DNA from: a virus
Lineage: Duplodnaviria; Heunggongvirae; Uroviricota; Caudoviricetes
DNA: 19,493 nt
Strand: one strand, 5' to 3'
IMG/VR virus record: IMGVR_UViG_3300028048_000050
Span: 1 to 19,493 of that record
The notes beneath the pieces are model-generated. The model worked only from the letters and a program-made list of their open reading frames with translations. It was not told the origin of the DNA and made no database searches. Below, piece by piece: positions 760 through 19,493 of the stretch. Position numbers and translations under genes: made by a program. Numbering within the stretch: position 1 is the first letter of the stretch; every line of letters begins with the position of its first letter.

Positions 760-760
760 A

Positions 761-4335: not shown

Positions 4336-4807
4336 GTTTCCAAAATTTATAAGTTATATCAATGGCTTTAAAATCATATTGACTATTACCTACATATTTT
4401 TGTTCAATTTTAAACATTCTTTGATTAGTATTTGGATTATCTAAAGAACCTTTTTCTTTTATATAAGGTCCTATTTTAATATAATCATAATTCCAAATTT
4501 CTAATTCTTTAGGTAAATCCGGAAGTCCTGTATACCAACCAACTTTTAAGTTAGTATGTAGTCTAATGAAATTTGCTAACTTATTTACTTCTTCTACATT
4601 ACCTCCCATAAATCCAACACATGTAATTCCTCTACTATGTTCTATAAGATTAGAAAGTTCTTCTTTCGTTAATTCTGTACCAATATCTTCCCAAAGTTCT
4701 GGACTATGACATCCAGGACAATGGAAAGGACAATTAGTTATATTTATACATAAAGCAATTTCATCTGGAAATTCACTAAATGTTATCATTGTATTAAGGT
4801 ATTTCAT
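4319..4807 (-). CDS. nrdG: Anaerobic ribonucleotide reductase activating enzyme (radical SAM)
   Basis: CPFHCPGC (CxxxCxxC), GFMGG, YIKIGPY, NTNQR; in the nrdD cluster. Confidence 0.93.
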   Translation of the reverse strand: MKYLNTMITFSEFPDEIALCINITNCPFHCPGCHSPELWEDIGTELTKEELSNLIEHSRGITCVGFMGGNVEEVNKLANFIRLHTNLKVGWYTGLPDLPKELEIWNYDYIKIGPYIKEKGSLDNPNTNQRMFKIEQKYVGNSQYDFKAIDITYKFWKHGNNK

Positions 4808-4809
4808 TT

Positions 4810-4914
4810 TTAATAATTATTTTTAGTATAAAGTTTATTTCCAGATTTCGTTTTTTCTAAATATTCTATTAATTCTGGGTCTGTAACTTTTTCCCATTCA
4901 TCTTCTTCATTCAT
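4810..4914 (-). CDS. Small hypothetical protein (34 aa)
   Basis: MNEEDEWEKVTDPELIEYLEKTKSGNKLYTKNNY; ATGA overlap with the FTR-like gene stop; TAA 2 nt before the nrdG ATG. Confidence 0.6.
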   Translation of the reverse strand: MNEEDEWEKVTDPELIEYLEKTKSGNKLYTKNNY

Positions 4915-5108
4915 ACTTCTTTAATATATAATTGGCAACAACATTTATCCCGTAATCTATAACTTTCACAGGGACAAGTAAGATCTCCATCGTTTTCCTC
5001 ATGAACACAAGGACATTTACCTTCATTTCTTTCTACTGCTTTAGTAATACCTTTAACAATTTTTTCATTTGGATTTAACTACCAACCTTCTTTAATTAAA
5101 TATTTCAT
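4911..5108 (-). CDS. Ferredoxin:thioredoxin reductase catalytic-subunit-like Fe-S protein (65 aa; in-frame TAG at codon 10)
   Basis: MKYLIKEGW[TAG]LNPNEKIVKGITKAVERNEGKCPCVHEENDGDLTCPCESYRLRDKCCCQLYIKEV; CPC/CPC/CxC motifs plus LNP; ATGA overlaps with the nrdD stop and the downstream ORF start. Confidence 0.85.
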
Positions 5109-7324
5109 CCAAACCAAACTCCTCCTTCCTCATTGTTATTAACACCGTAAACTCTTTTCTTTTGTTCTATTTTACGAGGATTACTAAAAGCACTTACAGG
5201 ACGAAGGTATCCAATAATTCTAGTCCAATAATCGATATTTTCACTACCACACTTAGGACATTTCTCAATAGGAGCATTTACTACATGACCACACTTTTTA
5301 CATTCACTTATAGGAATATTAAAAGTAAAGTAATTAGTACCTTCTTCTATAGCAAAATCAATTAATTTAAGATATTGTTCTTTCGAAAGATGTGCATCCA
5401 AGTTAGCGTGAAGTGCTTGTCCTCCATCACAATATGGAGCTACTTGTTTACCATGTAAAATAAATTTATCAAGAATAGAGGTATTGTCCCAAGGATTATA
5501 AAAATAACAGTTATATAAGTTCTGATCTTTAGGTACCCAATATCCATCCTTCTTATCATGTTCATAAAGTTTTACTCCTAATCCTTCTCCAGGAATTGCT
5601 TCACTATTAAATAAAATAGGTCTTTTCTTGTCTCTAATAGAATGTAATTTATTTTGTTCTTTAACAGTTCCAAATACTAATCGTAGAAATTTAATATATT
5701 CCTCATTATTAGAAACAGACATTCCTAAGAATTGAGCAGCTTCAGTATAACCGATAAGTCCAATAGTAGAATATAATTTTTTCATATAAATATATCCTCC
5801 ATTAGACGGACTGAACATACCTTTTTCTTCTAAATCATAAAGCATTGTTTTATATGCTATGTGATATTTGTAAACTCTCTCAAGAATACTGCAAAGATAA
5901 TTTCTAAAGCCTTCCATATCCTCTTCTGTAATATCTTTGTATAGAATACCAGAAGTTCCAAAGTAATTTGTATCTACAGTTTTAAAATAGTCTTGAGTGA
6001 TTCTATTAATATTAAGAGTAATTACATTACAAGAACCTGTCATAATTCCAGTCATTCCAGTAGTACTACTAAATGTATTTTCAGACATTTCATTAAGTAC
6101 TCTACAACAGCTAGCTAATGCTGATGGATTATTAGAAAGATAACAGAAGAAACTTCCACCTTTAGCCCATTCCTCGGCACATAAATCTTTATATTCCTTA
6201 TCAATTACATCATTACCATCATGTACCATAGCAAATGTGGTAACAGGGAATGTTAAAGGCTTAATAAGTCTAAGCTCTCTATGTAATTCCATGAATATTC
6301 TTTGAAGTGTATCTATTGCTTTCCATTCTGGTTTAGTTCCATCTGGATAATAGAATTCATCAAAGATAGATTCAAAATATGTTTTATCATAATACGAACA
6401 ATTACTAAATGGAGAATTATAACTTCTGTTACCAGCAGGCTGATTAACTCCATAAATAAATTGTTTCATACCTTTACGAATAGCTCTTCTAATAGTCATC
6501 GGTCTTAAACAATGATCAGATGTTGTATTTACATCTAATTTATTATACCAATTTGGACCATATTCTGCTATTACATAATAATTTAAAGCAATAAAGTAAT
6601 CACCTAAAGCTATAGCACCTTTTGCTGAGGCTGATAGTAAAAATACAAGATTTGTTACTTGTCCACTAAATGATTGAATATCGTTAGGAGGTGTTGGAGT
6701 TACTCCATCTATTACTCCTACTCCTTCAGCCATTAATGGGAATAAAGTTGCAGCCATACAATAAGGCTTAAGAACTGGAGAAGAAGCTTCGTCATGAGTA
6801 TAAATAACCCAATTCTCCAAATCCTTTATATATTGTTTACCCAAATCGTCTTCCTCAGGGAATAATTCATTGAGTTTATCTTTCATTCTTTGTCTTTGAA
6901 TACGTCTGTTTGTTACTTTATAAACTTCACCTTCTAAATTGGCTACATTTTTCATAGTAACATTAGCATTAGAATCTGTTTCTGAAGAAGTAGACGCATT
7001 ATCTCCAGAATTAGCATAATTATCCATGTAATCTAATCTTTCACGGATAAATCTTGCTTGTTTATGTTCTAATCTGTAAGTTTGATAACAATCTGCTATT
7101 TCGGAATAATCAAAGTTTCGTAATGTTTCAATTACTTGGTCTTGAATATCTTCAATAGTCATTTCATTCCATACTTTAACGGAATTAACTAATTCATTAT
7201 ATACATCATCATCTACAGTATATCCTACAGAATTAAAAGCAGCTTTAATTGCATTTTTAATCTTGTTAGGATTAAATTGTTCTTTTTTACCTGAACGTTT
7301 AATAATTAACATTTTTTCTTTCAT
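5105..7324 (-). CDS. nrdD: Anaerobic (class III) ribonucleoside-triphosphate reductase with N-terminal ATP cone
   Basis: ATP cone IIKRSGKKEQFNPNKI; finger-loop SCCR; Zn site CKKC...CPKC; glycyl-radical motif TRIIGY. Confidence 0.96.
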   Translation of the reverse strand: MKEKMLIIKRSGKKEQFNPNKIKNAIKAAFNSVGYTVDDDVYNELVNSVKVWNEMTIEDIQDQVIETLRNFDYSEIADCYQTYRLEHKQARFIRERLDYMDNYANSGDNASTSSETDSNANVTMKNVANLEGEVYKVTNRRIQRQRMKDKLNELFPEEDDLGKQYIKDLENWVIYTHDEASSPVLKPYCMAATLFPLMAEGVGVIDGVTPTPPNDIQSFSGQVTNLVFLLSASAKGAIALGDYFIALNYYVIAEYGPNWYNKLDVNTTSDHCLRPMTIRRAIRKGMKQFIYGVNQPAGNRSYNSPFSNCSYYDKTYFESIFDEFYYPDGTKPEWKAIDTLQRIFMELHRELRLIKPLTFPVTTFAMVHDGNDVIDKEYKDLCAEEWAKGGSFFCYLSNNPSALASCCRVLNEMSENTFSSTTGMTGIMTGSCNVITLNINRITQDYFKTVDTNYFGTSGILYKDITEEDMEGFRNYLCSILERVYKYHIAYKTMLYDLEEKGMFSPSNGGYIYMKKLYSTIGLIGYTEAAQFLGMSVSNNEEYIKFLRLVFGTVKEQNKLHSIRDKKRPILFNSEAIPGEGLGVKLYEHDKKDGYWVPKDQNLYNCYFYNPWDNTSILDKFILHGKQVAPYCDGGQALHANLDAHLSKEQYLKLIDFAIEEGTNYFTFNIPISECKKCGHVVNAPIEKCPKCGSENIDYWTRIIGYLRPVSAFSNPRKIEQKKRVYGVNNNEEGGVWFG

Positions 7325-7337
7325 AAAAATTTAAATT

Positions 7338-7378
7338 AAAAGGTTATAAGAATATTAATATATTCTTAATAACCCTTT
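7338..7378 (-). terminator. Putative intrinsic terminator between the ADP-ribosylglycohydrolase gene and nrdD
   Basis: Minus strand GGTTATTAAGAATAT-ATTA-ATATTCTTATAACC (one bulge) followed by TTTTAATTT. Confidence 0.55.
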
Positions 7379-7392
7379 AATCAAAATCATAT

Positions 7393-8238
7393 TTAGAGGT
7401 CTAAATTATACATTTTACTAAAGTCCTCTAAAATATTCAATAGATCACTAGGTAATCTATCTAATGTTTCATCAGCCAAATCTTTTGGAATTCCCCAATA
7501 TGCTGCAGCTAAACTACCTGCTATACAAGCTTGAGTATCTGTATCTCCTCTTAATAATATAGCTTCTCTTATAGTTTCTTCATATGAATGACTGTAAAGA
7601 AAACAACTTATTGCTTCTGGAACTGATTTTTGACAACTTACTTCAAACTTATATCCAGAATTTCTAATTTCTTGAGGAGTCCTATCAACTTTATACTTAT
7701 AATCAATAGTAGGAATTAATACAAAACCTTCCATATAAGGTGTATCATAATTCTCCCAATCATTATATTGTAGAATTCTAAATATTAAATTAGCAATAAC
7801 TTGAGCACCTTTTATACCTTCTGGATGATTATGACTTACAGAAGCTGACATTCCAGCAACAAGTTTTGTAGTTTCTAAACTTTCAAAACAACATCCCACA
7901 GGACTTACTCTCATAGCTGAACCATTTCCCCAACTATTATAAGGTTTAGGATTTTCTGTTTTTAACCATTGACGAAAGTTACCTCCATATCCAGCATTAG
8001 GATATTTATTACCTAAATCTTGCATAATATTGATAAGATCATTAGTATTAAAAGGTTCTTCTAGTAACCATTTAGATACAGCTAAAGTCATTACAGAATC
8101 ATCAGAAAAACGTGAATCATCAGACCATAATGGAAAATCTTTTTCAATATGAACTCCTTTTCTAAGAAATTCATAAGGAACTTCAATCATATCTCCACAA
8201 ATAGCTCCTAGTACAGGATTTTTTATAAATTTATCCAT
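7393..8238 (-). CDS. ADP-ribosylglycohydrolase (DraG/ARH family)
   Basis: GAICGD..PYEF, SDDSVMT, SWGNGSAMRVSP, SHNHPEG and GDTDT metal-binding motifs. Confidence 0.92.
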   Translation of the reverse strand: MDKFIKNPVLGAICGDMIEVPYEFLRKGVHIEKDFPLWSDDSRFSDDSVMTLAVSKWLLEEPFNTNDLINIMQDLGNKYPNAGYGGNFRQWLKTENPKPYNSWGNGSAMRVSPVGCCFESLETTKLVAGMSASVSHNHPEGIKGAQVIANLIFRILQYNDWENYDTPYMEGFVLIPTIDYKYKVDRTPQEIRNSGYKFEVSCQKSVPEAISCFLYSHSYEETIREAILLRGDTDTQACIAGSLAAAYWGIPKDLADETLDRLPSDLLNILEDFSKMYNLDL

Positions 8239-8240
8239 AA

Positions 8241-8486
8241 TTAATTATATTGTTCATAAAAAGCAAACTTACTTAATAACATTCTTTTCCATGTTATTTC
8301 AGACTCTTCATTAAATGGATCAATAACTAGTATGTCTTCTCGTTGTCCATCACATAAAACTGAAGGTTCATATCTGATTATATCACAATCAACAAGAATT
8401 TGTCCAAATCTTAAATCTGGATGTTTTTCAACTAATTTAGAAAGGGTTTCTAATATTAATTTATTATACTTTTGCCTTTCTTTCAT
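8241..8486 (-). CDS. Hypothetical phage protein (PDLRFGQ family)
   Basis: 81 aa containing HPDLRFGQIL, a motif common in small phage proteins; coupled to neighbours. Confidence 0.75.
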   Translation of the reverse strand: MKERQKYNKLILETLSKLVEKHPDLRFGQILVDCDIIRYEPSVLCDGQREDILVIDPFNEESEITWKRMLLSKFAFYEQYN

Positions 8487-9268
8487 ATATCAAGAATGTC
8501 TTTAACAAGTAAGGTCTTTTCAAAAATATTAAATGGATCTTTTTTCATACCGTCAGTAATTACTTGAGTAAAAGCATTATATACTTGATACATACTAGTA
8601 TCTCCTCCAAATCCTACATAATAATCATCGTCCTCTTTTTCAAATAAAGATTTATAAGCATCAATAGGAGTAGAACAAGCAATTTTTACTGGTTGATATT
8701 GATTATTAAAACTGTAATTAATACAATTTCTAATCCATCTGCCTAAAGATTCATTTACATTTTGCTCAGTACAATCAAAATCTGTTTCTACTAATTTCTT
8801 TAACCAAACAGAAGTATCATCAGTTTTCTCAATAATTCTATCTAACGGCTTAAAATCAATAGGAGTTTCGGACTCTACATCTTGACAAGATAAAAGTTCA
8901 GGAGAAAATACACATAAATTAGTACAAGCTCTTCTTTCTTGTCCTTTAAAGAATTTAGCTACAGGTTTACGAACATCTAATCCATAAACCATACCAAATA
9001 CAGAACGATGAACATCATCATTAAACTTATATTCATCTGGAAGAATAGCTTCAATAAGAACTCTATTATAAGTTATATCTTCAGTATTTATATCACCTTC
9101 AGCAGTATAAGTAATTTGACTTGGAAGTTGTACTTGAACTCTAATTTCTTGAGTTATCTTTTGAACTCTTTCCAAAAAGGGCTCTACATAAGCCCTAGTT
9201 GGAAGAAATTCTTTACTTTTAATTCTGGTAGCTCTACCAGCTAATAATTCATTTAAAGTAATTTCCAT
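8483..9268 (-). CDS. DUF932-like protein
   Basis: 261 aa; RRACTNLCVF resembles the DUF932 R..C.N motif; TAATG and ATGA overlaps. Confidence 0.6.
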   Translation of the reverse strand: MEITLNELLAGRATRIKSKEFLPTRAYVEPFLERVQKITQEIRVQVQLPSQITYTAEGDINTEDITYNRVLIEAILPDEYKFNDDVHRSVFGMVYGLDVRKPVAKFFKGQERRACTNLCVFSPELLSCQDVESETPIDFKPLDRIIEKTDDTSVWLKKLVETDFDCTEQNVNESLGRWIRNCINYSFNNQYQPVKIACSTPIDAYKSLFEKEDDDYYVGFGGDTSMYQVYNAFTQVITDGMKKDPFNIFEKTLLVKDILDI

Positions 9269-9597
9269 TATACAAAATTTAAAAAACGTTCTGTAGCTAG
9301 TTCCTCTTTTAATTCATCTACTTCTAAATAAAGACGTTCAATATGTCTTCTCTCCTCTGAAGTAATATTATAATTTACTTCTCTCCAATATTTTTCTATA
9401 TTAGCATTATCATTTCGATAATTTGCGTATGAAATAAAAATAGAATCAGGATCTATTCTTATTTCTATACGTTCATCTCCTCTTTTTATAGAAAACATAT
9501 ATCTATCTATAGAAAAACTATAACTATCTACACAATATCTATTTTGTATAGATTTTTCAATAACTTCAAAACATTTAGATATAGTAATATTTTCCAT
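9268..9597 (-). CDS. Hypothetical protein (109 aa)
   Basis: Intact ORF, TAATG-coupled to the next gene. Confidence 0.7.
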   Translation of the reverse strand: MENITISKCFEVIEKSIQNRYCVDSYSFSIDRYMFSIKRGDERIEIRIDPDSIFISYANYRNDNANIEKYWREVNYNITSEERRHIERLYLEVDELKEELATERFLNFV

Positions 9598-9599
9598 AA

Positions 9600-9950
9600 T
9601 TACTCGTCATCGTCATCTAAGTCATTAACTGTCTTAGGTTCATCATCTGTATTGAAATAGCTTTCAAATTCAGAAATAGCTATATCTTCATTATATTCTT
9701 TTACAGTTAAATGAAAAGCTTGAATTTCTAGTTTATCTCTTTCACTATAATTGAAAGGAATTTTCAGATAACCTTTCAAAGTTCTTAAAGAGAAATATTC
9801 ACCCCCAAATCCAAACCAAATTTCTATAGAATCTCCAATTTCAAAACAAATGTAATTATTATCATTATTAAACGATTCTATTTTTTCTCCTTTATTCATA
9901 GCCTTTCTAATAAATTCAAAAGACTCTTTAATCCAATTCCTCGTCTCCAT
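9600..9950 (-). CDS. Hypothetical protein (116 aa)
   Basis: Track ORF 9600..9986; ATG 9950 (METRNW) minimises overlap with the upstream gene; acidic tail. Confidence 0.65.
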   Translation of the reverse strand: METRNWIKESFEFIRKAMNKGEKIESFNNDNNYICFEIGDSIEIWFGFGGEYFSLRTLKGYLKIPFNYSERDKLEIQAFHLTVKEYNEDIAISEFESYFNTDDEPKTVNDLDDDDE

Positions 9951-10635
9951 AATATTCTTTTTTAATTTCTTCTTCATTAATTTCAATATCTTCTCCCCTA
10001 TATTCCTTCCAATTCTTTATAACTATATCTTTATTAGAATAAGGACTTGGTCCCATATATACAGACATATTAAATGAATTTAAATCTCTATTCCAATTAA
10101 AGAAATTTCCTGCCATATCAAGAAATTCAAAGAATTTACTTTGAACAGACTCTGCAATAGCTGATTTATCAAATCCAGAATCTGGAATTAAATCAATAAG
10201 TTGTTTTTCTAAATTATCAGGATGATCATAACTCCTATATCCAGGATGATGAAATCCAGTTTCGTCTGTCCAATCGTCAATATATTTATCAACAATAGGT
10301 TCTTTACAATAATTTTTAAGGGTTTCTATTATGTCTAATAATTCTTGTTGATTATCTATTTTATAGGCATAAACATAGTTATCAACAATATCCTTTAATA
10401 TATCTTTTGGAAGATAATAAAATTCATAAGGTCTAGGTCCAATACATTCTACTAAAGACTTTCCAATGTAGTTTGGATCAAGATCCTTAGTTTTTTCCCA
10501 TAATAAATATTTATTAGAATACACTTTATTCTGACCTACAAAATCTTCCCATTCTACATGAGGTTGAGCATATGAATATAATTCCTTCATACAATCGTCA
10601 GCCGCTTTACTTAATATATCAGATCGTGTTAACAT
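9928..10635 (-). CDS. Hypothetical phage protein (235 aa)
   Basis: Long intact ORF in the operon; no recognised motif. Confidence 0.75.
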   Translation of the reverse strand: MLTRSDILSKAADDCMKELYSYAQPHVEWEDFVGQNKVYSNKYLLWEKTKDLDPNYIGKSLVECIGPRPYEFYYLPKDILKDIVDNYVYAYKIDNQQELLDIIETLKNYCKEPIVDKYIDDWTDETGFHHPGYRSYDHPDNLEKQLIDLIPDSGFDKSAIAESVQSKFFEFLDMAGNFFNWNRDLNSFNMSVYMGPSPYSNKDIVIKNWKEYRGEDIEINEEEIKKEYYGDEELD

Positions 10636-10638
10636 AAT

Positions 10639-12144
10639 TTAATCTTCTATTTTACCAAACATTACATTATTTCCTACAACATATGAATAATTAATGCTCC
10701 AAGGAGTGTTACCCCAGTTTGCTGCAATATAATTAGAAGTTGCATACATACTACCTACTGAAACATAATCAAATTGTTTGCCAGAAGTATAAGCAAACTG
10801 ATGTAAATCACCTTTAATTACATAAATCTTATTAGTTCTATCTGAATTTAATTTCTTTTCAGCAATATAGTTAGCAAAATATAATTCAGTTTGAGGATTT
10901 AAAGTTAATGGAAATTGTTTAGATTGATTTTGATTATCCTTACCATGAGTACAAATAAATTTAATTTTGTCTACAGATAATTCATCGATAGGATAATCAC
11001 TTACATAAGTTTTCCATCCAGTTTGTTGTAATCTATAAGATAAAGCTAAATTTAATGCCCAACCAAAATTACCACTATGATTACTTTCTCCAATACTAAA
11101 ATATAAATAAGAATCAGCTTTTACTAAATTCTTAATATTATAAAAGAAATATTCCATACAATCTAAATAAAGATGACTCATTTCTTTATCAGTCATATTA
11201 TTAGGAAGTAAATGACCTCCTCTAGTAGTCTCTTTATTATATTGATCAATAGAATCTCCTAAATCAGCAATTAAAACATTATTATAAGATTTTCCAGCAA
11301 ATGTGGAAATAATCTTATCTAATCTTCTTTTAATTTCTTCTTTATCATAATTAGGTAATTGATAGAAACCAAACTTTTCATTATAAGCTCCGATATGTAG
11401 ATCTGATAACCAAATAATTAAGGTTTCAGGTAATGTACCCTGATTTTCAATTATAGGCTTTTCATTTGTAAAGTTGGGATCATACTCTAATAATTGTTCT
11501 AACAAAGAACTATTTTTAGAAAGTTTTTGATTCTCTTGTGCTAATTTATTAATAAGTTTATTAGCTTCAGAAAGTTGATCTTTCTCAAGTCTTCTAAGAA
11601 CATTATTTTCTTTATTTTGATTATGAAGAGCTACTAATTCTTCTTCAGATTTTTCTTCAATAATATGTGGAGCAAATTCTGAATTAGCTTTATAAATGTT
11701 AAATGCTCTAAGAATTCTTTTAAATTCTACAAAAGTATATTCTGGAAAATTTCTAGAAACTATCTTTTGAGTTAAATTAGAACCATAAATAGAATATAGT
11801 CTATAAATAGTTTCCATTTCTTTTCTATCTAACTTTCCAGATAATGTTGGAGCATCCTTTCTAAAAATTTCAAATGTATAATATTGAATTAAGCCGTTTT
11901 CATCTCTTTCGGTAAAAACATTAGCTCTATCATCGGTATCTACACTTTTCTTAACTTTTCTTTTCTTACAGTTATTATATGCTTCAATAAATTGTGCTTT
12001 CAATTCATCTGAATGATCGGAACTAACTACATTCTGATACATTTGATAATAATATCCTGCTTTGTGTTTTTCATTATCTAAGGTTTTATAATTGTTTAAA
12101 TCCTCTATAATTTCATTAATTTTCTTTTCACTTATTTTATTCAT
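10639..12144 (-). CDS. Metallophosphoesterase/nuclease (Mre11/PolD-small-subunit-like) with N-terminal helical and coiled-coil region
   Basis: C-terminal half has WLSDLHIG, DLGDSID, GESNH, CTHG and GDLH; residues ~180-215 look coiled-coil. Confidence 0.8.
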   Translation of the reverse strand: MNKISEKKINEIIEDLNNYKTLDNEKHKAGYYYQMYQNVVSSDHSDELKAQFIEAYNNCKKRKVKKSVDTDDRANVFTERDENGLIQYYTFEIFRKDAPTLSGKLDRKEMETIYRLYSIYGSNLTQKIVSRNFPEYTFVEFKRILRAFNIYKANSEFAPHIIEEKSEEELVALHNQNKENNVLRRLEKDQLSEANKLINKLAQENQKLSKNSSLLEQLLEYDPNFTNEKPIIENQGTLPETLIIWLSDLHIGAYNEKFGFYQLPNYDKEEIKRRLDKIISTFAGKSYNNVLIADLGDSIDQYNKETTRGGHLLPNNMTDKEMSHLYLDCMEYFFYNIKNLVKADSYLYFSIGESNHSGNFGWALNLALSYRLQQTGWKTYVSDYPIDELSVDKIKFICTHGKDNQNQSKQFPLTLNPQTELYFANYIAEKKLNSDRTNKIYVIKGDLHQFAYTSGKQFDYVSVGSMYATSNYIAANWGNTPWSINYSYVVGNNVMFGKIED

Positions 12145-12170
12145 TTTTCAATGTTGTACTATAGTGTTAT

Positions 12171-12211
12171 AAAATAAAAAGCCGATTAGAAAATTACTTT
12201 CTAACCGGCTT
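12171..12211 (-). terminator. Intrinsic terminator after the 179-aa gene
   Basis: Minus strand AAGCCGGTTAGAAA-GTAAT-TTTCTAATCGGCTT (14 bp, one G-U) followed by TTTATTTT. Confidence 0.85.
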
Positions 12212-12238
12212 AATATTAAGAGTCTACAAAATCTGAGA

Positions 12239-12778
12239 TTAATCCATCACTTTGTAACCAAATACAAGCAACTTGCATGGCTGAGTACCCTTAGAAGGTA
12301 CATAGTTTACCTTAGCATAAAGAGAGTTCTTCTCCTTCATACGAGTTTCAATAACGAGGTCTACACCAACCTTGTTGTCGATAACCCACTCCTTAGCAGC
12401 TTGTTCAGCAGCCTTAGAAGTCTTCTCAGTGAAGATTTCCTCACCAGTATCTTGAGCACGACCTACATACACTCTTACTGGAGTATGTGTACGAGCCTCA
12501 TACTTAGGCTTTTCTACCTTATAAGGACGCTCTCTCGAATCAAGAACAGCTGACTGAAGAACGATATATGCACCATCATTAGGCATATTAAACTTCTTCT
12601 TCTTCAGATATTCTACCATCCACTCCTTAACATTATCTTCATTAGTTACATTCTCCTTAGCCCATTTCTTATAAGCCTGAGTAGCATCTACACGAAGGTT
12701 AAGCTTAGAGTTCTTCATTGCTTCATCTTTGGTCTGACCAATAGTCTCAAATTTTGTGAAAAATACGTTATTTTCCAT
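12239..12778 (-). CDS. Basic hypothetical protein, probably highly expressed (179 aa)
   Basis: Intact ORF with visibly more AAG/GAG/AAC/TTC/GGT/CGT codons than neighbours; long leader upstream and a strong terminator downstream. Confidence 0.8.
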   Translation of the reverse strand: MENNVFFTKFETIGQTKDEAMKNSKLNLRVDATQAYKKWAKENVTNEDNVKEWMVEYLKKKKFNMPNDGAYIVLQSAVLDSRERPYKVEKPKYEARTHTPVRVYVGRAQDTGEEIFTEKTSKAAEQAAKEWVIDNKVGVDLVIETRMKEKNSLYAKVNYVPSKGTQPCKLLVFGYKVMD

Positions 12779-12938
12779 AATAGTTAATAAAATTTACATC
12801 AATTCATTCGGATTTAATCCGTCATAACTATCTACTAAAATGGAAACATCTTTTCCCCCGAAGAGGAACATATTAAATTTATCATCAACTATGAGTAATC
12901 ATAGTTAATGAATGTTAAAATTAATTTTTTAACATTTG
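12779..12938 (-). promoter_or_regulatory. Structured 160-nt intergenic leader (four hairpins)
   Basis: Inverted repeats at 12911-12936, 12883-12910, 12853-12868 (cUUCGg loop on minus strand) and 12809-12821; longest non-coding stretch in the window. Confidence 0.5.
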
Positions 12939-13286
12939 TTAAAAGGGAAGATAAGAACTTAAAATTCCCCTTATTTCTTTAATAATATCTTGTCCTTTTA
13001 ATCCAAAAGTTGGAAATTCAGAACAAGAATATGCGAAATCCTTACAAACAATACTTAATCCAATTATGAACTTATCGGGTAAACCTAATTTATCAGATAA
13101 TTTCATTACCACTTGATAATAAGTTGTATCAGGATTTTTTAATTTCATCTTATGTGTTACATAACAGATTAATGAAATTAATTCCAGCTTCCTTTCAAAA
13201 GAAGTCATAGTGGAAGTAGGTTTAGGATTTAAATAACCTATACTAAATACATCTCTGTATAAATTTTCTAATTCTTTATATTTCAT
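12939..13286 (-). CDS. Hypothetical protein (115 aa)
   Basis: Intact ORF, ATGA-coupled to the exonuclease gene. Confidence 0.75.
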   Translation of the reverse strand: MKYKELENLYRDVFSIGYLNPKPTSTMTSFERKLELISLICYVTHKMKLKNPDTTYYQVVMKLSDKLGLPDKFIIGLSIVCKDFAYSCSEFPTFGLKGQDIIKEIRGILSSYLPF

Positions 13287-14314
13287 TTGAATTCAAATCC
13301 TTTTACTACATTTAAATAAGCTACAGTTTTTAATAAATACAAAGCTTCCTTCCACCCTGACAAGAATAATTTAGAAGTCATAGGATATACACGAGTTTCG
13401 TATTCTGGAATAGTAGAAACCACTAAGAAATTACCTTTAGTCATTGCTTGTTCAACATTATAATATTTCTTAGCAATTAATTTAAGTAACCATGAATAGA
13501 AAGCTATTTCTCTTTGATAACTATAGTAAGTTGGATCAAATATTGCTACAGGTCTTGATGTAGTTTTCAAATCATTAACTGTAAGAATATTATCTTCTGT
13601 ATCTATACTAAAGTTATCTAATTTAGCTTTTAACTTATATTGTCTTTTTTCATATCCTGGTACTTCCATCCATATATCCAACAAAATAGTCTTCTCATTA
13701 CCGATAATTGGATCAGATAAAGGATTAGAAGGATTGAGTAACTTTTGAATATCTTTATTTGCATTTAATGTTTTTAAACAATTATTTAATAATTCAAAAT
13801 TCTTTTCATCAGTATATATTCTTTCCTTATCTCCTTCTTTAATAGGATTATTTTGTTCATAAATAAACCTATCTCTCCAATAAGGTTCGGCTTTTTCTCT
13901 AAACTTCTTTATTATATTATCAGAAAGTTTATCTTTATAATAGCCTATTTCATAAGACTTAGCTTTTATTTCATTATCTGTTGGTGTTTTTCCATTAGAT
14001 TTATATAAAGATTCTGCCATTAATCCGGCTTTAGCAGTAGGTTTAAATACACCATCAATTACTTGATATTTATCACCTTGTAAAACTATTTGATGTATAA
14101 GACTACCAGTTTCAAAGGATGCAGAATAATCATTTTTTAATCCATCAAAGAAACTTTCAGCTCCATCAGTAACAAGCTTTCCTAATCTACTATTAGAAAT
14201 ATAATCACTATATTTCTCACTAAAGTATACAGAATCATCAATATCTTCTAATCTTAAAGAATCTAGTATTGGAGTTACTTTTATTTTTTTAATTAACTCA
14301 TTATCAAGTGTCAT
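13283..14314 (-). CDS. PD-(D/E)XK exonuclease (DUF3799/RecE-like)
   Basis: ISNSRLG, GSLIHQIVL, KAKLDNF, VNDLKTT and YQREIAFY motifs of phage RecE/Cas4-like nucleases. Confidence 0.8.
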   Translation of the reverse strand: MTLDNELIKKIKVTPILDSLRLEDIDDSVYFSEKYSDYISNSRLGKLVTDGAESFFDGLKNDYSASFETGSLIHQIVLQGDKYQVIDGVFKPTAKAGLMAESLYKSNGKTPTDNEIKAKSYEIGYYKDKLSDNIIKKFREKAEPYWRDRFIYEQNNPIKEGDKERIYTDEKNFELLNNCLKTLNANKDIQKLLNPSNPLSDPIIGNEKTILLDIWMEVPGYEKRQYKLKAKLDNFSIDTEDNILTVNDLKTTSRPVAIFDPTYYSYQREIAFYSWLLKLIAKKYYNVEQAMTKGNFLVVSTIPEYETRVYPMTSKLFLSGWKEALYLLKTVAYLNVVKGFEFK

Positions 14315-14841
14315 ATATATTTACTAAATTCTTTGAATATTCCCATTTCCTTTGCTAAATAATAAACATCTTCTATTTCATCATAGCTTAATGAATATAT
14401 TTTTAGAAAAGGACCATATTCTTTATTATTATCTCCATCAATTAATAAGCATGGAATACCAGCTAAATTTAAATTGATCCATTGATGGGGTGAATCTTCG
14501 ATAAAAACATCTACTCTTCCTTTAATATATCGAGATTTAGGAATTCTATATCCTGGTACCTGATACAACGGACTGTTAGGTAAATCATTTATTTGGATTG
14601 CCTTTTTAGTCCAACATTTTTTATTTACCCTAGAACTACAATATAGTTTAGGATCAAAATCAGGTCTTCTTATTACTGGTAAATTTACCCAAAAATCTCT
14701 CTCTTTGGAAAGTATATGTTCTACATTTCTTGTAACAGCCCAATCATATTTAGGCCATCTTTTAAATCGGTTGATATATCCTTTAGAAAATCCGAATATA
14801 GTATCATCTAAATCACAACCTATTTGTAAACGTTTAATCAT
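14311..14841 (-). CDS. HAD-superfamily 5'(3')-deoxyribonucleotidase-like protein
   Basis: HAD motif I CDLDDT, motif II CSSR, motif IV VFIEDS. Confidence 0.8.
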   Translation of the reverse strand: MIKRLQIGCDLDDTIFGFSKGYINRFKRWPKYDWAVTRNVEHILSKERDFWVNLPVIRRPDFDPKLYCSSRVNKKCWTKKAIQINDLPNSPLYQVPGYRIPKSRYIKGRVDVFIEDSPHQWINLNLAGIPCLLIDGDNNKEYGPFLKIYSLSYDEIEDVYYLAKEMGIFKEFSKYI

Positions 14842-14941
14842 TCTTTACTAAATTAGTTTCTAATCTAAACGTTTCTTTCTCTTCTTCAGATAAATTATTA
14901 TATGAAGTAATTAACCTTTTAATATAAGTTTCTCTTTTCAT
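14834..14941 (-). CDS. Small hypothetical protein (35 aa)
   Basis: MKRETYIKRLITSYNNLSEEEKETFRLETNLVKND fills the gap, with ATGA overlap upstream and 8-nt overlap downstream. Confidence 0.6.
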   Translation of the reverse strand: MKRETYIKRLITSYNNLSEEEKETFRLETNLVKND

Positions 14942-15168
14942 AATTCATCAATTTCTTCTAAATCTGACAATGCAATATCGAACTTATCATTCAGATATTC
15001 CCTTAATTGATCCCAATTTTCTATAGTGTTTAAAATAGTATCATCATCAAATTCTTCACCATATTTAATGATTAACTTTTCAACAGCATCATTATAGGAT
15101 CGTGCAACAAGAGTTTTAATTACTGGCCAAACATCTATAGGACATTCTGCCCATAAATACTTATTCAT
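14938..15168 (-). CDS. Hypothetical protein (76 aa)
   Basis: Intact ORF in the operon. Confidence 0.7.
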   Translation of the reverse strand: MNKYLWAECPIDVWPVIKTLVARSYNDAVEKLIIKYGEEFDDDTILNTIENWDQLREYLNDKFDIALSDLEEIDEL

Positions 15169-15174
15169 ATTTTA

Positions 15175-15798
15175 TTATTCAATAATTGTCCAAAGTTCAT
15201 AGAACTTATCAAAATCTTCATAGGGTAATATACTATATCCATCCTGTCCATAATGCTTACCCCAAGAATTTCTTATAATAAATCCGTCTTTATTATAACC
15301 TACTATTGCTATAGCATGTCCTCCTTCAAAAGAACCTTTACTTTTATCCCAGAAATTTTTTGTATAAGAATTATATACAGGCAATCCTCCTATACACGGT
15401 CCATTAGCTACAATAGCTTGTTTTAGAGCTAATTCTGAACCTATTCTAGCATATTTATGTACAATTCTCCTATTTCCAGATTTTATGATAGCATCGTTAT
15501 GTTTTAAATAATGTAAAGCATCTTTAAATGACATTCCATCATTACTTGAATTTGTTCTATGTTTAAAAATATCTGAACAATTTAGTCCGTTTTCATATTC
15601 ACTGTTTCCTGTTTCCATATTTATAATCCAATTAACATATGCAGATATTGAACATGGTACACAAACAGGATTATTTCCTTGGTTTAATACTTCAGGTAAA
15701 CAATCAACATAACTTATTTTATCGGGGATGGAACCATCATTAGATAGAAACATATATTCGGTTCCATCAATTTTCGACTGTACAAATCCAAAGTTCAT
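15175..15798 (-). CDS. Papain-like cysteine peptidase (C1A-like)
   Basis: Oxyanion Gln and nucleophile Cys (NQGNNPVCVPCS), His (GGHAIAIVGY), Asn (IRNSWG); no signal peptide. Confidence 0.88.
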   Translation of the reverse strand: MNFGFVQSKIDGTEYMFLSNDGSIPDKISYVDCLPEVLNQGNNPVCVPCSISAYVNWIINMETGNSEYENGLNCSDIFKHRTNSSNDGMSFKDALHYLKHNDAIIKSGNRRIVHKYARIGSELALKQAIVANGPCIGGLPVYNSYTKNFWDKSKGSFEGGHAIAIVGYNKDGFIIRNSWGKHYGQDGYSILPYEDFDKFYELWTIIE

Positions 15799-16100
15799 TA
15801 CTTAATTACTCTTTTAATTATTTTAACGCTATCATTATTTATCTTTTCAACTTTATATGTTGCATTATTTTTTGAACATACATAAATAGTAATTCTATCT
15901 TGTGTTTCTTCTTCTTTAAGATATAATTTATCCCATTTATCTATATAGGGTAAAAAATCCTATATACACATAGAATCTAACTAGGCAATAGAATATTTTC
16001 CATTCATCTAGTTAATCATCTATCCTCCAGATAAATCTATAACTTTAGGAGAACATGAAAACAATAGTAAAGTTAATAATAACTATGAAACTTTTTTCAT
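15798..16100 (-). CDS. Lipoprotein (100 aa) with five in-frame TAG codons
   Basis: MKKVS*LLLTLLLFSCSPKVIDLSGG*MIN*MNGKYSIA*LDSMCI*DFLPYIDKWDKLYLKEEETQDRITIYVCSKNNATYKVEKINNDSVKIIKRVIK; lipobox LFSC at Cys16; ATGA overlap upstream, TAATG overlap downstream. Confidence 0.85.
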
Positions 16101-16645
16101 TGCAATTTTAATTTTAAATAATCATATAATATCTCAACAGGAACTAATGCAAGTGTTCCTGGACTATTTCCACCTTCTTTATCTTGTTTTTTCCAAATAA
16201 CAACAAAAGGTTTATCCTTTAGAGGACATTCCTCTTCTATTTTAAAATATGAAGGAACTGTTTGTGTTGCTTTACATTGAATATAACAAGGTAAATTACC
16301 ATCTAAATCATCTATATCTACTTTGGAATTATCCAACATTTTACTATTTGACCGGCTACTTACTGTATGATAACCCATATCATTTAGTTTATGAATAACA
16401 TCTAGCTCAAGTTGTGAACCTTTTTGCTTAGATCTCTTAGCAGTATAATGTTTTTTTGTATGTGGATCTAACCACTCCACTTGTATTCCATCTTTAGGAA
16501 TACTATTTTTATTAGCCCTTATTTTTAATGTTTGAACTGATAAAGTAGTCATTTCAGATGCTTTTTCTATAGAATCATAAACATAAGTATTTCCACCTTT
16601 ATCAGTTATTTTTACACCAGTATTTAACTATTTAGCTTTTGCCAT
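16097..16645 (-). CDS. Holliday-junction resolvase (Hjc-like PD-(D/E)XK) with N-terminal NUMOD1-like HTH; TAG at codon 6 (182 aa)
   Basis: SKQKGSQLE..L..MGY, KVDI, IQCK core; frame extends 31 codons above track start 16552 to ATG 16645 through one TAG (MAKAK*LNTGVKITDKGGNTYVYDSIEKASEMTTLS). Confidence 0.78.
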
Positions 16646-16775
16646 CGTATTTACTATTACTTGTTTCTCTAAGATAAACTCCAATTATCTTATACCAAAT
16701 ATCTTCTACACTGTAATTATATTCACAGGACTCTAATCCTTTTTCAATAATTTTAAAAAGTTCTTGCTTAGTCAT
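16632..16775 (-). CDS. Small hypothetical protein (47 aa)
   Basis: MTKQELFKIIEKGLESCEYNYSVEDIWYKIIGVYLRETSNSKYDGKS; ATGA overlap upstream; stop overlaps ATG 16645 region by 14 nt. Confidence 0.65.
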   Translation of the reverse strand: MTKQELFKIIEKGLESCEYNYSVEDIWYKIIGVYLRETSNSKYDGKS

Positions 16776-16981
16776 TTTATAACATGAACTATAGACCAAA
16801 ATATATGTCTTTCAATATATTGACCTCTTGGTATTTCATCTTCTGCAAAAGAGGCTGTAATATCAAATATATTTAATTTATTACCAGACCAAATGTCTGG
16901 CATACCTCCACATTTCATAAGTTTTGGAGGTTCTGCAAATACATGAGAACCAGTCCAATCTTTAGCTAAATATACTTTCAT
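16772..16981 (-). CDS. Hypothetical protein (69 aa)
   Basis: ATGA-coupled at both ends. Confidence 0.7.
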   Translation of the reverse strand: MKVYLAKDWTGSHVFAEPPKLMKCGGMPDIWSGNKLNIFDITASFAEDEIPRGQYIERHIFWSIVHVIK

Positions 16982-17979
16982 TTTAATTTATACTCTTTAA
17001 AAAAATCATCAACATACTCTTTCATATTATCTACTCCTACTAATTTAATAGAATCAGTAAAATCTTTAGATAAATAGAAAGGTAAATAAAAATAATTTAA
17101 TTCTGGATGTTGCTTACGAATAAGCCACATATTATGTTTTCCAGGTCTATCATTATCATATAATACTAATATATGTTTAAACCTTTGTTTGAACTCTTCT
17201 AGTTTCTTATCTTCAATAAATAAAGTTTCACTATTAGGACTTACCGCTGCTATTCCAAAACCATAAAGAGCTACTACATCTTTCATAGATTTTGTAATAA
17301 CTAACAAATCCCCAGTCTTTGGTAATTGATGATAACCTTGAAGAACTTTTTTAGAAAGATTATTTAAAAATCTATATTCTGTTTTTAGAGGAAAATATAT
17401 TTTCCATTTTTCAATACCATTTTTATCTTTACCAAAATAATATCCATAAATAGGACTTTTTTCATCAGAAGTAAATTTCAATGCTCCGTTAAGAAAAACG
17501 TGTTGTAAAGAATATATATGATACTTTTTTAGTAGCTTTTTAGAAATACCAAAAGATTTCCACCATTCTAATTCTTGTTCTGTATAATCCTTTATTTGAA
17601 CCTGTATTCTAGTTTTCTCAGTTTCTTTTAAGGGCTGAACAAGTTTTGGTGCTTCTTTCAAATTACTATTAGAACCTCCAATTAATCTAAAATCTCTAGC
17701 TATTATTTGTAATGCTTCATAATAGTTTACACCATATTTCTTCATTACTACCTGAAAACAATTTATGTGTTCATTGGTAGCAAAATCATGTAAATATAAT
17801 ATATTAGATTTAGATTTATATAAGGCACAAGTAACTTTATGATCATTTCTAAATGGAGATAGATGTAACTTTTTGCTAGTTACATCTATTCCAGTATAGA
17901 ATTGCATTATAGATTCCTGATTTATTTTAGAAAATATAAATTCCTTAGTTATTTCTGGTTCTAATGCTGAAAAATACAT
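16978..17979 (-). CDS. DNA primase (TOPRIM, DnaG-like)
   Basis: N-terminal SPFRND...LHDF domain; TOPRIM VITKSMKDV and LYDND (DxD); start may be 17979 or 18006. Confidence 0.85.
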   Translation of the reverse strand: MYFSALEPEITKEFIFSKINQESIMQFYTGIDVTSKKLHLSPFRNDHKVTCALYKSKSNILYLHDFATNEHINCFQVVMKKYGVNYYEALQIIARDFRLIGGSNSNLKEAPKLVQPLKETEKTRIQVQIKDYTEQELEWWKSFGISKKLLKKYHIYSLQHVFLNGALKFTSDEKSPIYGYYFGKDKNGIEKWKIYFPLKTEYRFLNNLSKKVLQGYHQLPKTGDLLVITKSMKDVVALYGFGIAAVSPNSETLFIEDKKLEEFKQRFKHILVLYDNDRPGKHNMWLIRKQHPELNYFYLPFYLSKDFTDSIKLVGVDNMKEYVDDFFKEYKLK

Positions 17980-18023
17980 AATTGATAATTTAAATTTTCT
18001 AAACAAGAATCTTATAATCTATA

Positions 18024-18737
18024 TTATTCGTCTAAATCAATGTCTAAATCAACTTCAGCATCGGCAGTATCAGGATTATCATCGTTATTATCCTTCATAG
18101 CTGTAGGCTTAGCCTCTTGATACTTCTTCATTTGAGTTAACTCATAATTACTCCAATTAAGAAGTTTCTTATCAAGAGAAACAAAGTTCAAAGCAGAAGG
18201 CTTTGTATCTGGTTTAGCGTCCTTACCTAATACACAAGAACTAGGAAGGGTTGAGAATGTCTGGTTATTTGTAGTACGACCAACAAGCTTTAGGAAGAAC
18301 TTAACATCAGTCTTTCCAGAAAGAGCTTTGATGATAAGATCTACAAACTGCTCCATACTCTTTAACTTAGAAGCATTCTCTTTAATCTTAGCAGCACCCT
18401 TAGGATTAACTACTTCAGTTAACTGCATAAGGGTATACTGGAATTGCTCGAAAGCAGAAGGATACTTAGCTCCACTGGTTTCATTAGTTCTTCTCTCGAA
18501 ATCAGAATCTTTAGTAGGAATAAACAGATTATGATTATATACACCTGTTTGATCTCCACAACCTGTAAATTCAATAGCAATTACAGGATATTCTGTGCCA
18601 TCCTTACCTTTCAAAGAAGTTTGTTCAATCTTTGTAAGATTTACCTCATAAATATCATAAGGACGAAGGTACTGAGGACCATTGTTTGTGAAAGAAGTTT
18701 CATTTAAACCATTAAAACTAAAATTTGCCATATTCAT
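18024..18737 (-). CDS. Putative single-stranded DNA-binding protein
   Basis: Between the AAA ATPase and primase; beta-rich N-terminus; acidic tail DADAEVDLDIDLDE-like (ADAEVDLDIDLDE); high-expression codon bias. Confidence 0.6.
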   Translation of the reverse strand: MNMANFSFNGLNETSFTNNGPQYLRPYDIYEVNLTKIEQTSLKGKDGTEYPVIAIEFTGCGDQTGVYNHNLFIPTKDSDFERRTNETSGAKYPSAFEQFQYTLMQLTEVVNPKGAAKIKENASKLKSMEQFVDLIIKALSGKTDVKFFLKLVGRTTNNQTFSTLPSSCVLGKDAKPDTKPSALNFVSLDKKLLNWSNYELTQMKKYQEAKPTAMKDNNDDNPDTADAEVDLDIDLDE

Positions 18738-18789
18738 TAATACATTTTAAAATTTAGTACATTATATAGTACCATCATAAGTATCTATA

Positions 18790-19365
18790 TTAGTCGTCAA
18801 TATCGAGATCAAAACTAATATCTGCTGCTTCTACTCCATCTTCATCAACATCTAAATCTTCATCAGAAGGATTAGCTATTTCATCAGGAATATCTACAGT
18901 ATCGTCTTCTTTTTCAGGAGCATCACCTACAAGCTTAAACCAACCATCCTTACCTTCATAAGGAACTACATCAAATACAGTTCCATATTCAGCAAGATTA
19001 TCGTGTTTAGAACCTCTACAACTAATAGTATTAGTCTTAGTTAATCTATTACCTTTAGATAAATCTTCAAGCAGAATAGGAGTTATTTTCTTACCTTCTT
19101 TGTTGAAACGAATATCAATCTTCATTTCAGCTTCCCATCCAGTTAATTCCATTGCAGCATTATTCAACTGAATCTTACCCTCTAATAAAGTTGCTTTAGG
19201 ATTAGGATCTCCATCATCCTTTGGTTTACGTGTTCTTGTAGTAGTAGAAGCAGATTTCTTAACTTCCTTAAAATCTCCTAGAGTAGCCTCTCTAGTAATA
19301 ATTTCTCCTGTCTCTTTATCAACAATAGACAGAATAAGTTTAGCTGATTGAATTTCTAATTCCAT
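18790..19365 (-). CDS. Replication-module protein with SSB-like acidic tail (191 aa)
   Basis: Intact ORF ending DEDGVEAADISFDLDIDD; TAATG-coupled to the ATPase. Confidence 0.7.
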   Translation of the reverse strand: MELEIQSAKLILSIVDKETGEIITREATLGDFKEVKKSASTTTRTRKPKDDGDPNPKATLLEGKIQLNNAAMELTGWEAEMKIDIRFNKEGKKITPILLEDLSKGNRLTKTNTISCRGSKHDNLAEYGTVFDVVPYEGKDGWFKLVGDAPEKEDDTVDIPDEIANPSDEDLDVDEDGVEAADISFDLDIDD

Positions 19366-19493
19366 TATAATTCTTCTTCCTCTTCACCATTATATTCTCT
19401 AATGACTTTAAGAATTTCATTTAAGTCATTATCAATTTCCATATCTTTAAACATATCCATAGGAGTTTTAGCAAGACACTTACCATCATTATT
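19365..19493 (-). CDS. C-terminal end of AAA_24/Sak4-like ATPase, partial
   Basis: NNDGKCLAKTPMDMFKDMEIDNDLNEILKVIREYNGEEEEEL*; AKTP..MF....IDNDL is the typical C-terminal signature as I recall it. Confidence 0.7.
   Translation of the reverse strand, partial: NNDGKCLAKTPMDMFKDMEIDNDLNEILKVIREYNGEEEEEL

Follow-up and report, generated by a model that had tools for sequence, protein, structure and literature searches.

A TAG-recoded lipoprotein gene paired with a papain-like peptidase gene in large gut and rumen phages

The lipoprotein gene

The stretch of DNA analysed here, referred to as the window, consists of bases 1–19493 of a single 179,115-bp contig of 30% GC (IMG/VR record IMGVR_UViG_3300028048_000050, a virus of the Caudoviricetes). 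On its minus strand lies a gene of 100 codons, here called the lipoprotein gene, which contains five in-frame TAG codons. It is followed directly by a gene for a papain-like cysteine peptidase. The main features, in window coordinates, are as follows.

15798..16100, minus strand: lipoprotein gene, 100 codons plus TAA; its translation with TAG as Gln is P0001
16053..16100, minus strand: predicted signal peptidase II-type leader, codons 1–16 (MKK, hydrophobic core, lipobox L-F-S-C)
16083..16085, minus strand: TAG codon 6 (Gln), within the signal peptide; TAG in all recoded close homologues
16020..16022, minus strand: TAG codon 27 (Gln), variable column; TAG unique to the window copy, other residues in relatives
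16008..16010, minus strand: TAG codon 31 (Gln), conserved Gln column; TAG in 9, CAA in 1
15981..15983, minus strand: TAG codon 40 (Gln), the Q of the motif QFDSxC; TAG in 7, CAA in 1, CAG in 1, TCA in 1
15960..15962, minus strand: TAG codon 47 (Gln), variable column; TAG unique to the window copy
15175..15798, minus strand: papain-like (C1A) cysteine peptidase, 207 residues, recognised by PF00112, PDB 3ois and its catalytic residues

P0001 begins MKKVSQLLLTLLLFSC... and is 100 residues long when the minus strand is translated with TAG as glutamine. That translation has TAG at codons 6, 27, 31, 40 and 47, the positions listed in a preliminary description of the window made from its letters alone, and the frame is free of TAA and TGA up to the TAA that ends it. 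The ATG shares the bases ATGA with the TGA of the upstream gene, and the TAA shares TAATG with the ATG of the downstream gene. The coordinates of this 303-nucleotide frame and both overlaps had been given correctly; the strand is minus, a plus-strand reading of 15798–16100 being ruled out by its many stops. The GC content of the window is 28.5%, and TAA and TGA together occur off-frame in the window genes at 0.098 per codon, a rate at which a 100-codon frame free of both is expected by chance with P ~3e-5.

The leader consists of MKK, the stretch VSQLLLTLLLF and the lipobox L-F-S-C, with Cys16 at 16053–16055. Its n-region is positively charged, its h-region is hydrophobic and the lipobox Cys falls among the first ~35 residues; it fits a PROSITE PS51257-style lipobox pattern, as one of only two credible matches genome-wide. 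Since the pattern is matched and Cys16 is invariant in homologues, the earlier proposal of a signal peptidase II leader stands. Lipid anchoring and cleavage by signal peptidase II at Cys16 are predicted. The only other open reading frame (ORF) of the genome with a lipobox, at genome 29609–29770 (minus strand), encodes 53 residues (MKKILFILAAMMLMFAC...), has 0 TAG and is o-spanin-sized; it adjoins a PD-(D/E)XK endonuclease ORF at 28990–29460 with 3 TAG.

The mature sequence contains the two further cysteines noted earlier, Cys45 and Cys75. The disulfide that this implied is another matter: Cys45 is found in many but not all members of the family, and position 75 is C or Y even in close relatives, so that a conserved Cys45–Cys75 disulfide is unlikely.

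Homologues and the TAG codons

With TAG read as Q, a search of 5.8 billion proteins gave 21 close homologues (62–98% identity, mostly full length), and a profile search of 1.84 billion cluster representatives gave 116 distant clusters at E<=1e-3, all of ~90–135 residues. The size of the family is accordingly given as at least 116 clusters at 50% identity. Every homologue locus for which there is DNA (9/9) translates only with TAG as Q.

The count for codon 6 includes the locus L005, taken from its true upstream start. Gln40 is near-invariant across the wider family, and codon 68, which is CAA in the window copy, is TAG in one relative. Because TAG swaps with CAA or CAG at Gln31, Gln40 and Gln68, it is exchanged with glutamine codons at conserved glutamine positions. 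The peptidase gene of several relatives has TAG as the codon for the invariant Gln in NQG, the oxyanion-hole motif of papain.

The pairwise ratio of non-synonymous to synonymous substitution rates (dN/dS) of the lipoprotein gene has a median of 0.28, the lowest segment being the signal peptide with 0.14 (dS 0.2–1.15). On these comparisons the gene is under purifying selection. Extra selection on the TAG codons was considered and rejected: at codons 6 and 31 TAG is kept about as well as AAA, GAT and TGT are where they are conserved elsewhere. TAG being kept in the same way as the preferred codons of other amino acids, it is this gene's preferred Gln codon and nothing beyond that. The genome-wide preferred Gln codon, unlike that of the lipoprotein gene, is CAA.

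Two metatranscriptome contigs, X1 and X3 (two libraries from one sample), span 14800–17100 with zero differences from the window. They show no sign of editing at the TAGs; strand, ends, level and transcription cannot be deduced from them. Since DNA carry-over into RNA libraries is possible, they are evidence for neither transcription nor timing. The stretch is found in bovine gut and rumen runs from ~16 studies.

Judged from the sequence, the clear conclusion is that 15798–16100 on the minus strand is a real gene for a 100-residue prolipoprotein, with TAG read as glutamine.

The partner peptidase and the gene pair

The peptidase scores 38.8 bits against PF00112 (cut-off 20.7) and matches PDB 3ois at 2e-11. 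Its residues Q40, C49, H161 and N177 are intact, and the motifs NQG, CVPCS, GGHA and RNSWG are shared without variation by 62 sequences. Signal peptide, hydrophobic leader and I29-type prodomain are all absent. The mature-type start, IPDxxxYVD, is already reached at residue 24, and residues 1–23 form a conserved extension with several invariant residues. There are at least 784 relatives, on contigs up to 414 kb.

The two genes are found together well beyond the close relatives of the window. A search of viral contigs for related loci with P0001 as query found none. When loci were located via the peptidase, 54 of 55 viral contigs had a lipoprotein-family ORF on the same strand, 3–136 nt upstream. 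Two genomes in which the genes are not adjacent were checked, the single exception among the 55 and the Lak-A1 megaphage, and both encode the lipoprotein elsewhere in the genome. In three distant lipoprotein homologues (34–49% identity, contigs of 40–401 kb), which use the standard code and have 0 TAG, the peptidase starts a few bases downstream in every case and the remaining neighbours differ.

In the Lak megaphage (L021, Prevotella phage Lak-A1, MK250015.1, ~220 kb; and L077, ~160 kb) both genes of the module are present but unlinked. The peptidase has 209 residues and 4 TAG and lies between TAG-rich ORFs of 631 and 417 residues; the lipoprotein homologue is ~60 kb away, and the Lak-A1 copy has 3 TAG among 5 Gln codons.

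The presence of the lipoprotein gene goes with that of the N-terminal extension. Among matches on contigs of metagenome-assembled genomes (MAGs), a lipoprotein gene lies near 9 of 10 extension-bearing peptidases, in two of them on the opposite strand. These two (L090 and L091), on contigs labelled Romboutsia and binned with Firmicutes, are rearranged modules. None of 13 distant peptidases lacking residues 1–21 has a lipoprotein gene nearby. The combined figures are 63/65 with the extension and 0/13 without it (Fisher 5e-13), a comparison confounded by phylogenetic distance.

The lipoprotein and the prodomain-less papain-like peptidase are, as far as gene neighbourhoods indicate, a near-obligate two-gene pair in large gut and rumen phages. 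A literature search of limited extent found no description of such a module.

The lipoprotein family and its predicted fold

In an alignment of 66 diverged members, Cys16 and Trp56 are invariant, and the motif QFDSxCxADTLP, Tyr82 and a C-terminal Lys-Arg are near-invariant. The lipobox Cys is present in all 54 members on viral contigs. Neither Pfam nor PHROGs gave a family for the lipoprotein, and a Pfam scan of the 66 members gave scattered single matches only. One source names one distant cluster member 'YxeA', a name that was rejected, the Pfam scan giving it no support.

AlphaFold2, run on a deep alignment, generates a confident model, with a predicted local distance difference test score (pLDDT) of 94.2 and a predicted template modelling score of 0.70. 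The model has a signal helix (2–14), followed in the mature domain (residues 17–100) by a strand (28–37), a helix (38–47) and an antiparallel sheet of four strands (57–99). The mature domain contains 2 Pro in 84 residues.

Comparison of this model with known structures was not productive. Foldseek against the PDB gave nothing at E<=1e-3; the AFDB clusters gave weak unnamed or DUF matches only, and BFVD unnamed proteins only. VIA-align wide gave a flat list with a best Z of 5.1, from which no family can be assigned, and the ESM Atlas had nothing at 0.9 or above. A sequence profile search of the PDB gave marginal matches, confined to the leaders of other lipoproteins (FlgP, BamD). The family has no Pfam, PHROG or PDB relative in these searches.

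The predicted complex

The window peptidase was modelled together with the mature lipoprotein, with P0002 (98% identical) standing in for the window lipoprotein. The complex scored 0.64 (runs of 0.64, 0.58 and 0.65), and the best control 0.00. In calibration, the mark was reached by 58 of 80 solved complexes and by 2 of 110 mismatched pairs, a guide that is rough here because own alignments were used. The partner has a pLDDT of at least 75, and the contacts agree between runs to at least 58%.

In the model, the confident contacts are between lipoprotein strand 57–63 and peptidase residues 14–18, by strand addition. The other peptidase residues in the predicted interface are 12–33, 61–66, 115–131, 169–190 and 206–207; Q40, C49, H161 and N177 lie outside it. 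The lipoprotein is thus predicted to bind, with its β-sheet, the N-terminal extension and the back of the peptidase, leaving the catalytic cleft free. This predicted docking of the extension agrees with the evolutionary link between extension and lipoprotein gene. The complex prediction supports binding without showing it.

The genetic code of the phage

The phage decodes TAG as glutamine. Among the 29 complete genes of the window none ends in TAG (16 end in TAA, 13 in TGA), and there is no in-frame TAG in their 6085 codons, in agreement with the earlier statement that the lipoprotein gene stands among dozens of genes free of amber codons. The genome has 33 tRNA genes, two with a CTA anticodon and one with TCA:

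genome 54896–54973, minus strand: CTA-anticodon tRNA
genome 72400–72489, plus strand: CTA-anticodon tRNA

The TCA-anticodon tRNA, which reads TGA, is at genome 34217–34290 (minus strand), while TGA ends 13 of the 29 window genes.

With TAG taken as sense, long ORFs cover 83% of the genome instead of 48%, nearly all of the gain lying within a plus-strand late arm at 71–162 kb that includes the terminase, portal, major head protein and an Amidase_3 endolysin. The minus-strand arm, from 163 kb via the contig end to ~70 kb, carries the replication genes and is almost TAG-free. In the late arm 33% of Gln codons are TAG, compared with 9% in the minus arm. With TAG at 5 of its 6 Gln codons, the lipoprotein gene has the top fraction genome-wide (P=0.017 in a binomial test against the rate of the late arm). 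The gene had been called the most heavily recoded in the window, and this is so: only two other window ORFs carry TAG, at 4911–5108 and in the long form 16097–16645, with one apiece.

Such a division is known from code-15 phages, in which TAG is read as Gln by a phage suppressor tRNA and early replication genes stay in the standard code (bioRxiv 10.1101/2021.08.26.457843); this recoding has been validated by metaproteomics (PMC9523058). Lysis genes are preferentially recoded, as are homing endonucleases inserted among early genes, and the families that prefer TAG over CAA/CAG are a spanin, an amidase, a tail tube protein and one unknown (bioRxiv 10.1101/2021.08.26.457843). The lipoprotein gene has the features expected of a code-15 gene: an open conserved frame, TAG that is never a terminator, a CTA suppressor tRNA in the genome, and TAG opposite Gln codons in homologues.

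Apart from the genes around the lipoprotein gene, the ORFs with TAG in the minus arm for which an annotation was possible encode mobile endonucleases (GIY-YIG, T5orf172/NUMOD, PD-(D/E)XK). Homing-type endonuclease genes lie at genome 45740–46375, 162582–163316 and 28990–29460 (all minus strand) and at 111955–112710 (plus strand), with 3–9 in-frame TAGs each; they bear TAG even where they are placed in the otherwise TAG-free arm. The recoded mobile endonucleases of the early arm agree with the published recoding of homing endonucleases (bioRxiv 10.1101/2021.08.26.457843). Further isolated recoded genes are found at genome 35057–35794 (minus strand, 245 residues, 7 TAG) and 72707–73414 (minus strand, 235 residues, 9 TAG); both proteins are basic and Gly/Asn-rich, and neither had a Pfam or PHROG match.

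Genomic setting and the TAG island

In the lineage of the window the gene order is primase, RusA-like nuclease, lipoprotein–peptidase pair and exonuclease VIII-like gene. The nuclease gene is the 5' edge of an island of TAG-bearing genes:

16097..16645, minus strand: RusA-like nuclease, long form, 182 residues; TAG at codon 6 (16628–16630)

The short form of the nuclease matches phrog_244 at 1.3e-8. The true start of its gene is probably 93 nt farther upstream than that of the standard-code ORF, as the sequence comparison suggests: the N-terminal 31 residues, which include the TAG (MAKAKqLNTGVKITDKGGNTYVYDSIEKASEM...), are almost identical in L001, L002 and L008. This N-terminal stretch resembles the helix-turn-helix/NUMOD-type DNA-binding motif of homing endonucleases; it has no Pfam match.

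Throughout this lineage TAG is confined to three consecutive genes: 1 in the long form of the nuclease (codon 5/6), 2–5 in the lipoprotein gene and 0–4 in the peptidase gene. The ~18 flanking genes per 12-kb locus have 0 TAG. The peptidase gene has none in the window copy and its nearest relative, and 1–4 in most close relatives. Since the island in most close relatives also covers the peptidase and the nuclease, such gating is not peculiar to the lipoprotein gene.

In standard-code relatives the pair has 0 TAG and is usually attached to contractile-tail genes. At ~23 loci a tail sheath gene is upstream of the pair and a tail tube gene downstream; at ~17 loci the pair is preceded by NrdD/NrdG and followed by genes for the baseplate wedge (gp25-like and gp6-like). 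A second lineage, recoded independently (L041, a 160-kb contig), has 5 TAG in each gene of the pair, which there stands at the end of a TAG-rich block and has neighbours about as TAG-rich as itself.

The preliminary description took the five ambers to imply strong selection against premature expression. The sharply bounded island and the published recoding of lysis genes are consistent with this. It is unproven: the TAGs are retained as ordinary codons are, and the L041 neighbours are equally TAG-rich.

The genome has a probable lysis cassette at 73544–74832 (plus strand), in which a 225-residue type-II membrane protein (73544–74221; one transmembrane segment at residues 22–40, 5 TAG) is followed, with an ATGA overlap, by the Amidase_3 endolysin (phrog_435, 1.7e-42; 3 TAG, two of them within the first 15 codons). 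The cassette is ~1 kb downstream of the plus-strand CTA tRNA at 72400–72489 and has no lipoprotein gene beside it. The lipoprotein gene is ~58 kb from the endolysin and from the only i-spanin-like ORF, 73544–74221.

Assignment of a host from the MAG labels was rejected as unreliable. Prevotella, Bacteroidales, Bacilli and Clostridia all occur among them, and the contigs are probably mis-binned phage contigs.

Comparison with known systems

The phage resembles published code-15 phages in reading TAG as Gln with a suppressor tRNA, in having TAG-preferring genes and in keeping its early arm in the standard code. It differs in that the block of lipoprotein and peptidase (with the nuclease) sits inside the replication arm, far from the endolysin cassette. 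A paper on Zeta crAss-like phages mentions no protease, peptidase, lipoprotein or spanin (PMC12386605).

The closest analogue of the gene pair is Bfi/Bfp of Bacteroides fragilis. The staphostatin-like Bfi proteins (116–138 residues) are co-transcribed with C10 papain-clan Bfp proteases and are proposed inhibitors; two of three have lipoprotein signals, and some copies are on mobile elements or prophages (PMC2873492). As in the phages, a small gene lies within a few bases of a papain-clan peptidase gene and is co-oriented with it, in a gut anaerobe setting. The Bfp proteases are exported and have prodomains, in contrast to the phage C1A peptidase, which has neither signal peptide nor prodomain. 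No sequence or fold similarity to staphostatin or Bfi was detected, and no staphostatin is among the fold matches of the lipoprotein model. Staphostatin is an eight-stranded β-barrel; the lipoprotein is modelled as one helix and five strands. The interface predicted here avoids the active site.

Two further parallels are T4 Spackle (gp61.3), which acts against the gp5 lysozyme, and the lipoprotein Ltp of TP-J34, which acts against the tape-measure protein. Both are small exported phage proteins that bind a protein brought into the envelope by the phage particle, and both are early or prophage-expressed exclusion factors that are not encoded beside their target. No homology to either was found, and the lipoprotein gene differs in being TAG-gated and, in relatives, in lying among late genes.

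T5 Llp, Cor and the Rz1-type o-spanins are, like the protein described here, small phage lipoproteins with a signal peptidase II leader. The preliminary description considered the protein unlike an o-spanin, and the present results bear this out: it is not Pro-rich, its model is globular (pLDDT 94), its neighbours are a nuclease and a peptidase, it has no i-spanin neighbour, and it is not in the lysis cassette. No similarity to Llp or Cor appeared in the PDB profile or fold searches, a missing match that leaves membership of that family possible; the near-obligate partner of the lipoprotein is a peptidase, not a receptor-binding protein.

Proposed function and alternatives

On the basis of these observations, we hypothesise that the lipoprotein is a membrane-tethered partner or anchor of the peptidase, the translation of which awaits amber suppression. 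We favour this proposal while rating it a little short of an even chance. After export, the lipoprotein would be tethered by its lipid to the outer face of the cell envelope. The peptidase, having no signal peptide, would stay in the cytoplasm until late infection and would then reach the envelope compartment, most simply via holin lesions at lysis. There it could be captured by the lipoprotein, which would serve as a docking subunit and keep the enzyme at the membrane for proteolysis of the envelope at this late stage. The MAG labels of related contigs span Bacteroidota and Firmicutes, and an outer-membrane-specific role is therefore not assumed.

The five TAGs would provide the timing. The yield of full-length lipoprotein should vary as about the fifth power of the per-codon read-through, which by simple arithmetic would be 0.03% at a read-through of 0.2 and 33% at 0.8. 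Such steep dependence on the suppressor tRNA would delay translation even if early mRNA were made from the early arm, and synthesis would switch on steeply as the suppressor builds up, whatever the timing of transcription. Given the TAATG overlap, early termination at codon 6 may also lower translation of the peptidase, as a polar effect.

A number of points weigh against this proposal. The predicted starting compartments of the two proteins differ, and that they meet is something we infer. It is awkward to have an active protease without a prodomain waiting in the cytoplasm, unless it cuts a narrow range of substrates, and if the lipoprotein is purely an anchor there is no obvious reason why its early synthesis should do harm. 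The complex is a model, obtained with the 98% identical P0002 and own alignments, and the apparent link between extension and lipoprotein gene is confounded by phylogenetic distance. The enrichment of TAG (5/6) over the late-arm baseline is modest (P=0.017), TAG is retained no more strongly than ordinary codons, and the TAG load may reflect relaxed constraint on a protein that is dispensable early. A separate cassette already supplies the phage with a canonical amidase endolysin and a type-II membrane protein. Finally, with Firmicutes among the MAG labels, a role specific to the outer membrane could not be general.

The most substantial alternative, possible though in our view rather unlikely, is that the lipoprotein is a cognate neutraliser. 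It would bind a virion-carried or lysis-released peptidase that attacks the envelope from the periplasmic side, and so protect the infected cell or block like phages, by analogy with T4 Spackle, TP-J34 Ltp and the immunity lipoproteins of type VI secretion systems. Tight, adjacent, near-obligate pairing is typical of enzyme–immunity pairs, binding is predicted, and the location of the pair among tail sheath, tube or baseplate genes in ~40 of 54 relatives fits a tail-associated enzyme. The compartment problem disappears, because the peptidase arrives from outside, and the scheme would work in hosts with or without an outer membrane. The Bfi lipoproteins beside papain-clan Bfp proteases provide a precedent (PMC2873492). 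Against this, the predicted interface leaves the catalytic residues uncovered; exclusion proteins are usually early, and the lipoprotein gene is TAG-gated and among late genes in relatives; the peptidase gene here is in the early arm and has no TAG, which is unusual for a virion protein; and the presence of the peptidase in virions is an assumption. Known inhibitors of papain-like enzymes block the cleft. It is improbable that the protein acts independently of the peptidase, as an Llp/Cor-type receptor blocker or a non-canonical o-spanin, with adjacency reflecting shared regulation only. It is a small phage lipoprotein with a lysis-gene-like TAG bias, relatives carry the gene near tail genes, like llp and cor, and an o-spanin could be encoded away from the lysis cassette, since the type-II membrane protein beside the endolysin has no lipoprotein gene next to it. 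The low proline content and well-folded globular domain predicted for it are unlike an o-spanin, however, there is no i-spanin-like neighbour here or in relatives, and no sequence or fold match to Llp or to any solved lipoprotein domain was found. The 54/55 adjacency to the peptidase holds across two genomic contexts, and this near-obligate pairing, with the peptidase binding predicted against clean controls, makes a stand-alone Llp-type blocker or spanin unlikely.

The nuclease–lipoprotein–peptidase block may have come from a TAG-rich late region and entered the replication arm, perhaps with the nuclease, its TAGs being inherited or neutral and not a selected timer. We regard this too as improbable, if slightly less so than an independent envelope protein; it concerns the origin of the TAGs and is compatible with either function of the pair. 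Elsewhere in the TAG-free arm, TAG is found in ORFs for homing or mobile endonucleases, the island begins with a nuclease gene, the location of the pair differs between lineages, and both the equally TAG-rich late neighbours in L041 and the ordinary level of TAG retention fit such an origin. Position and gene order are nevertheless stable across the clade, at 62–98% protein identity and dS up to ~1, and there are TAG-free genes on both sides of the island, which argues that selection against TAG acts there and not on the three island genes. In addition, the window peptidase has lost or lacks TAG, while the lipoprotein gene keeps five. We give practically no credence to the idea that 15798–16100 is a decayed or non-coding spacer and its TAGs true stops. 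The frame is indeed broken five times under the standard code; set against this are 100 codons with no TAA or TGA (P ~3e-5), the dN/dS of 0.28, more than 100 homologous clusters that include TAG-free full-length copies, the exchange of TAG with CAA/CAG, and a confidently predicted fold.

Significance

Stop-codon recoding is known as a timer of late genes, mostly as a property of whole late modules. What is new here is a three-gene TAG island inside a standard-code replication arm, the same genes being TAG-free among the tail genes of standard-code relatives. The comparison of the island with its TAG-free, tail-located relatives therefore offers a clean natural test of whether amber codons replace genomic position as a timing signal.

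Apart from the recoding, a widespread lipoprotein family, found also in megaphages of 300–540 kb, is tied to a prodomain-less peptidase, and the module offers a testable binding interface and two distinguishable functional hypotheses. In its widest form, which we put forward as an unlikely but possible generalisation, the pair would be a new two-component phage envelope system. A lipid-anchored receptor, waiting outside the cytoplasmic membrane, would capture a protease by its N-terminal docking peptide, either to direct late proteolysis of envelope tethers, in which case spanins and disruptins would not be the only means of disrupting the envelope and a new one would join them, or to neutralise the tail-delivered protease of superinfecting phages. 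In recoded phages it would be timed purely in translation, by a stack of amber codons, independently of the position of the gene in the transcription programme.

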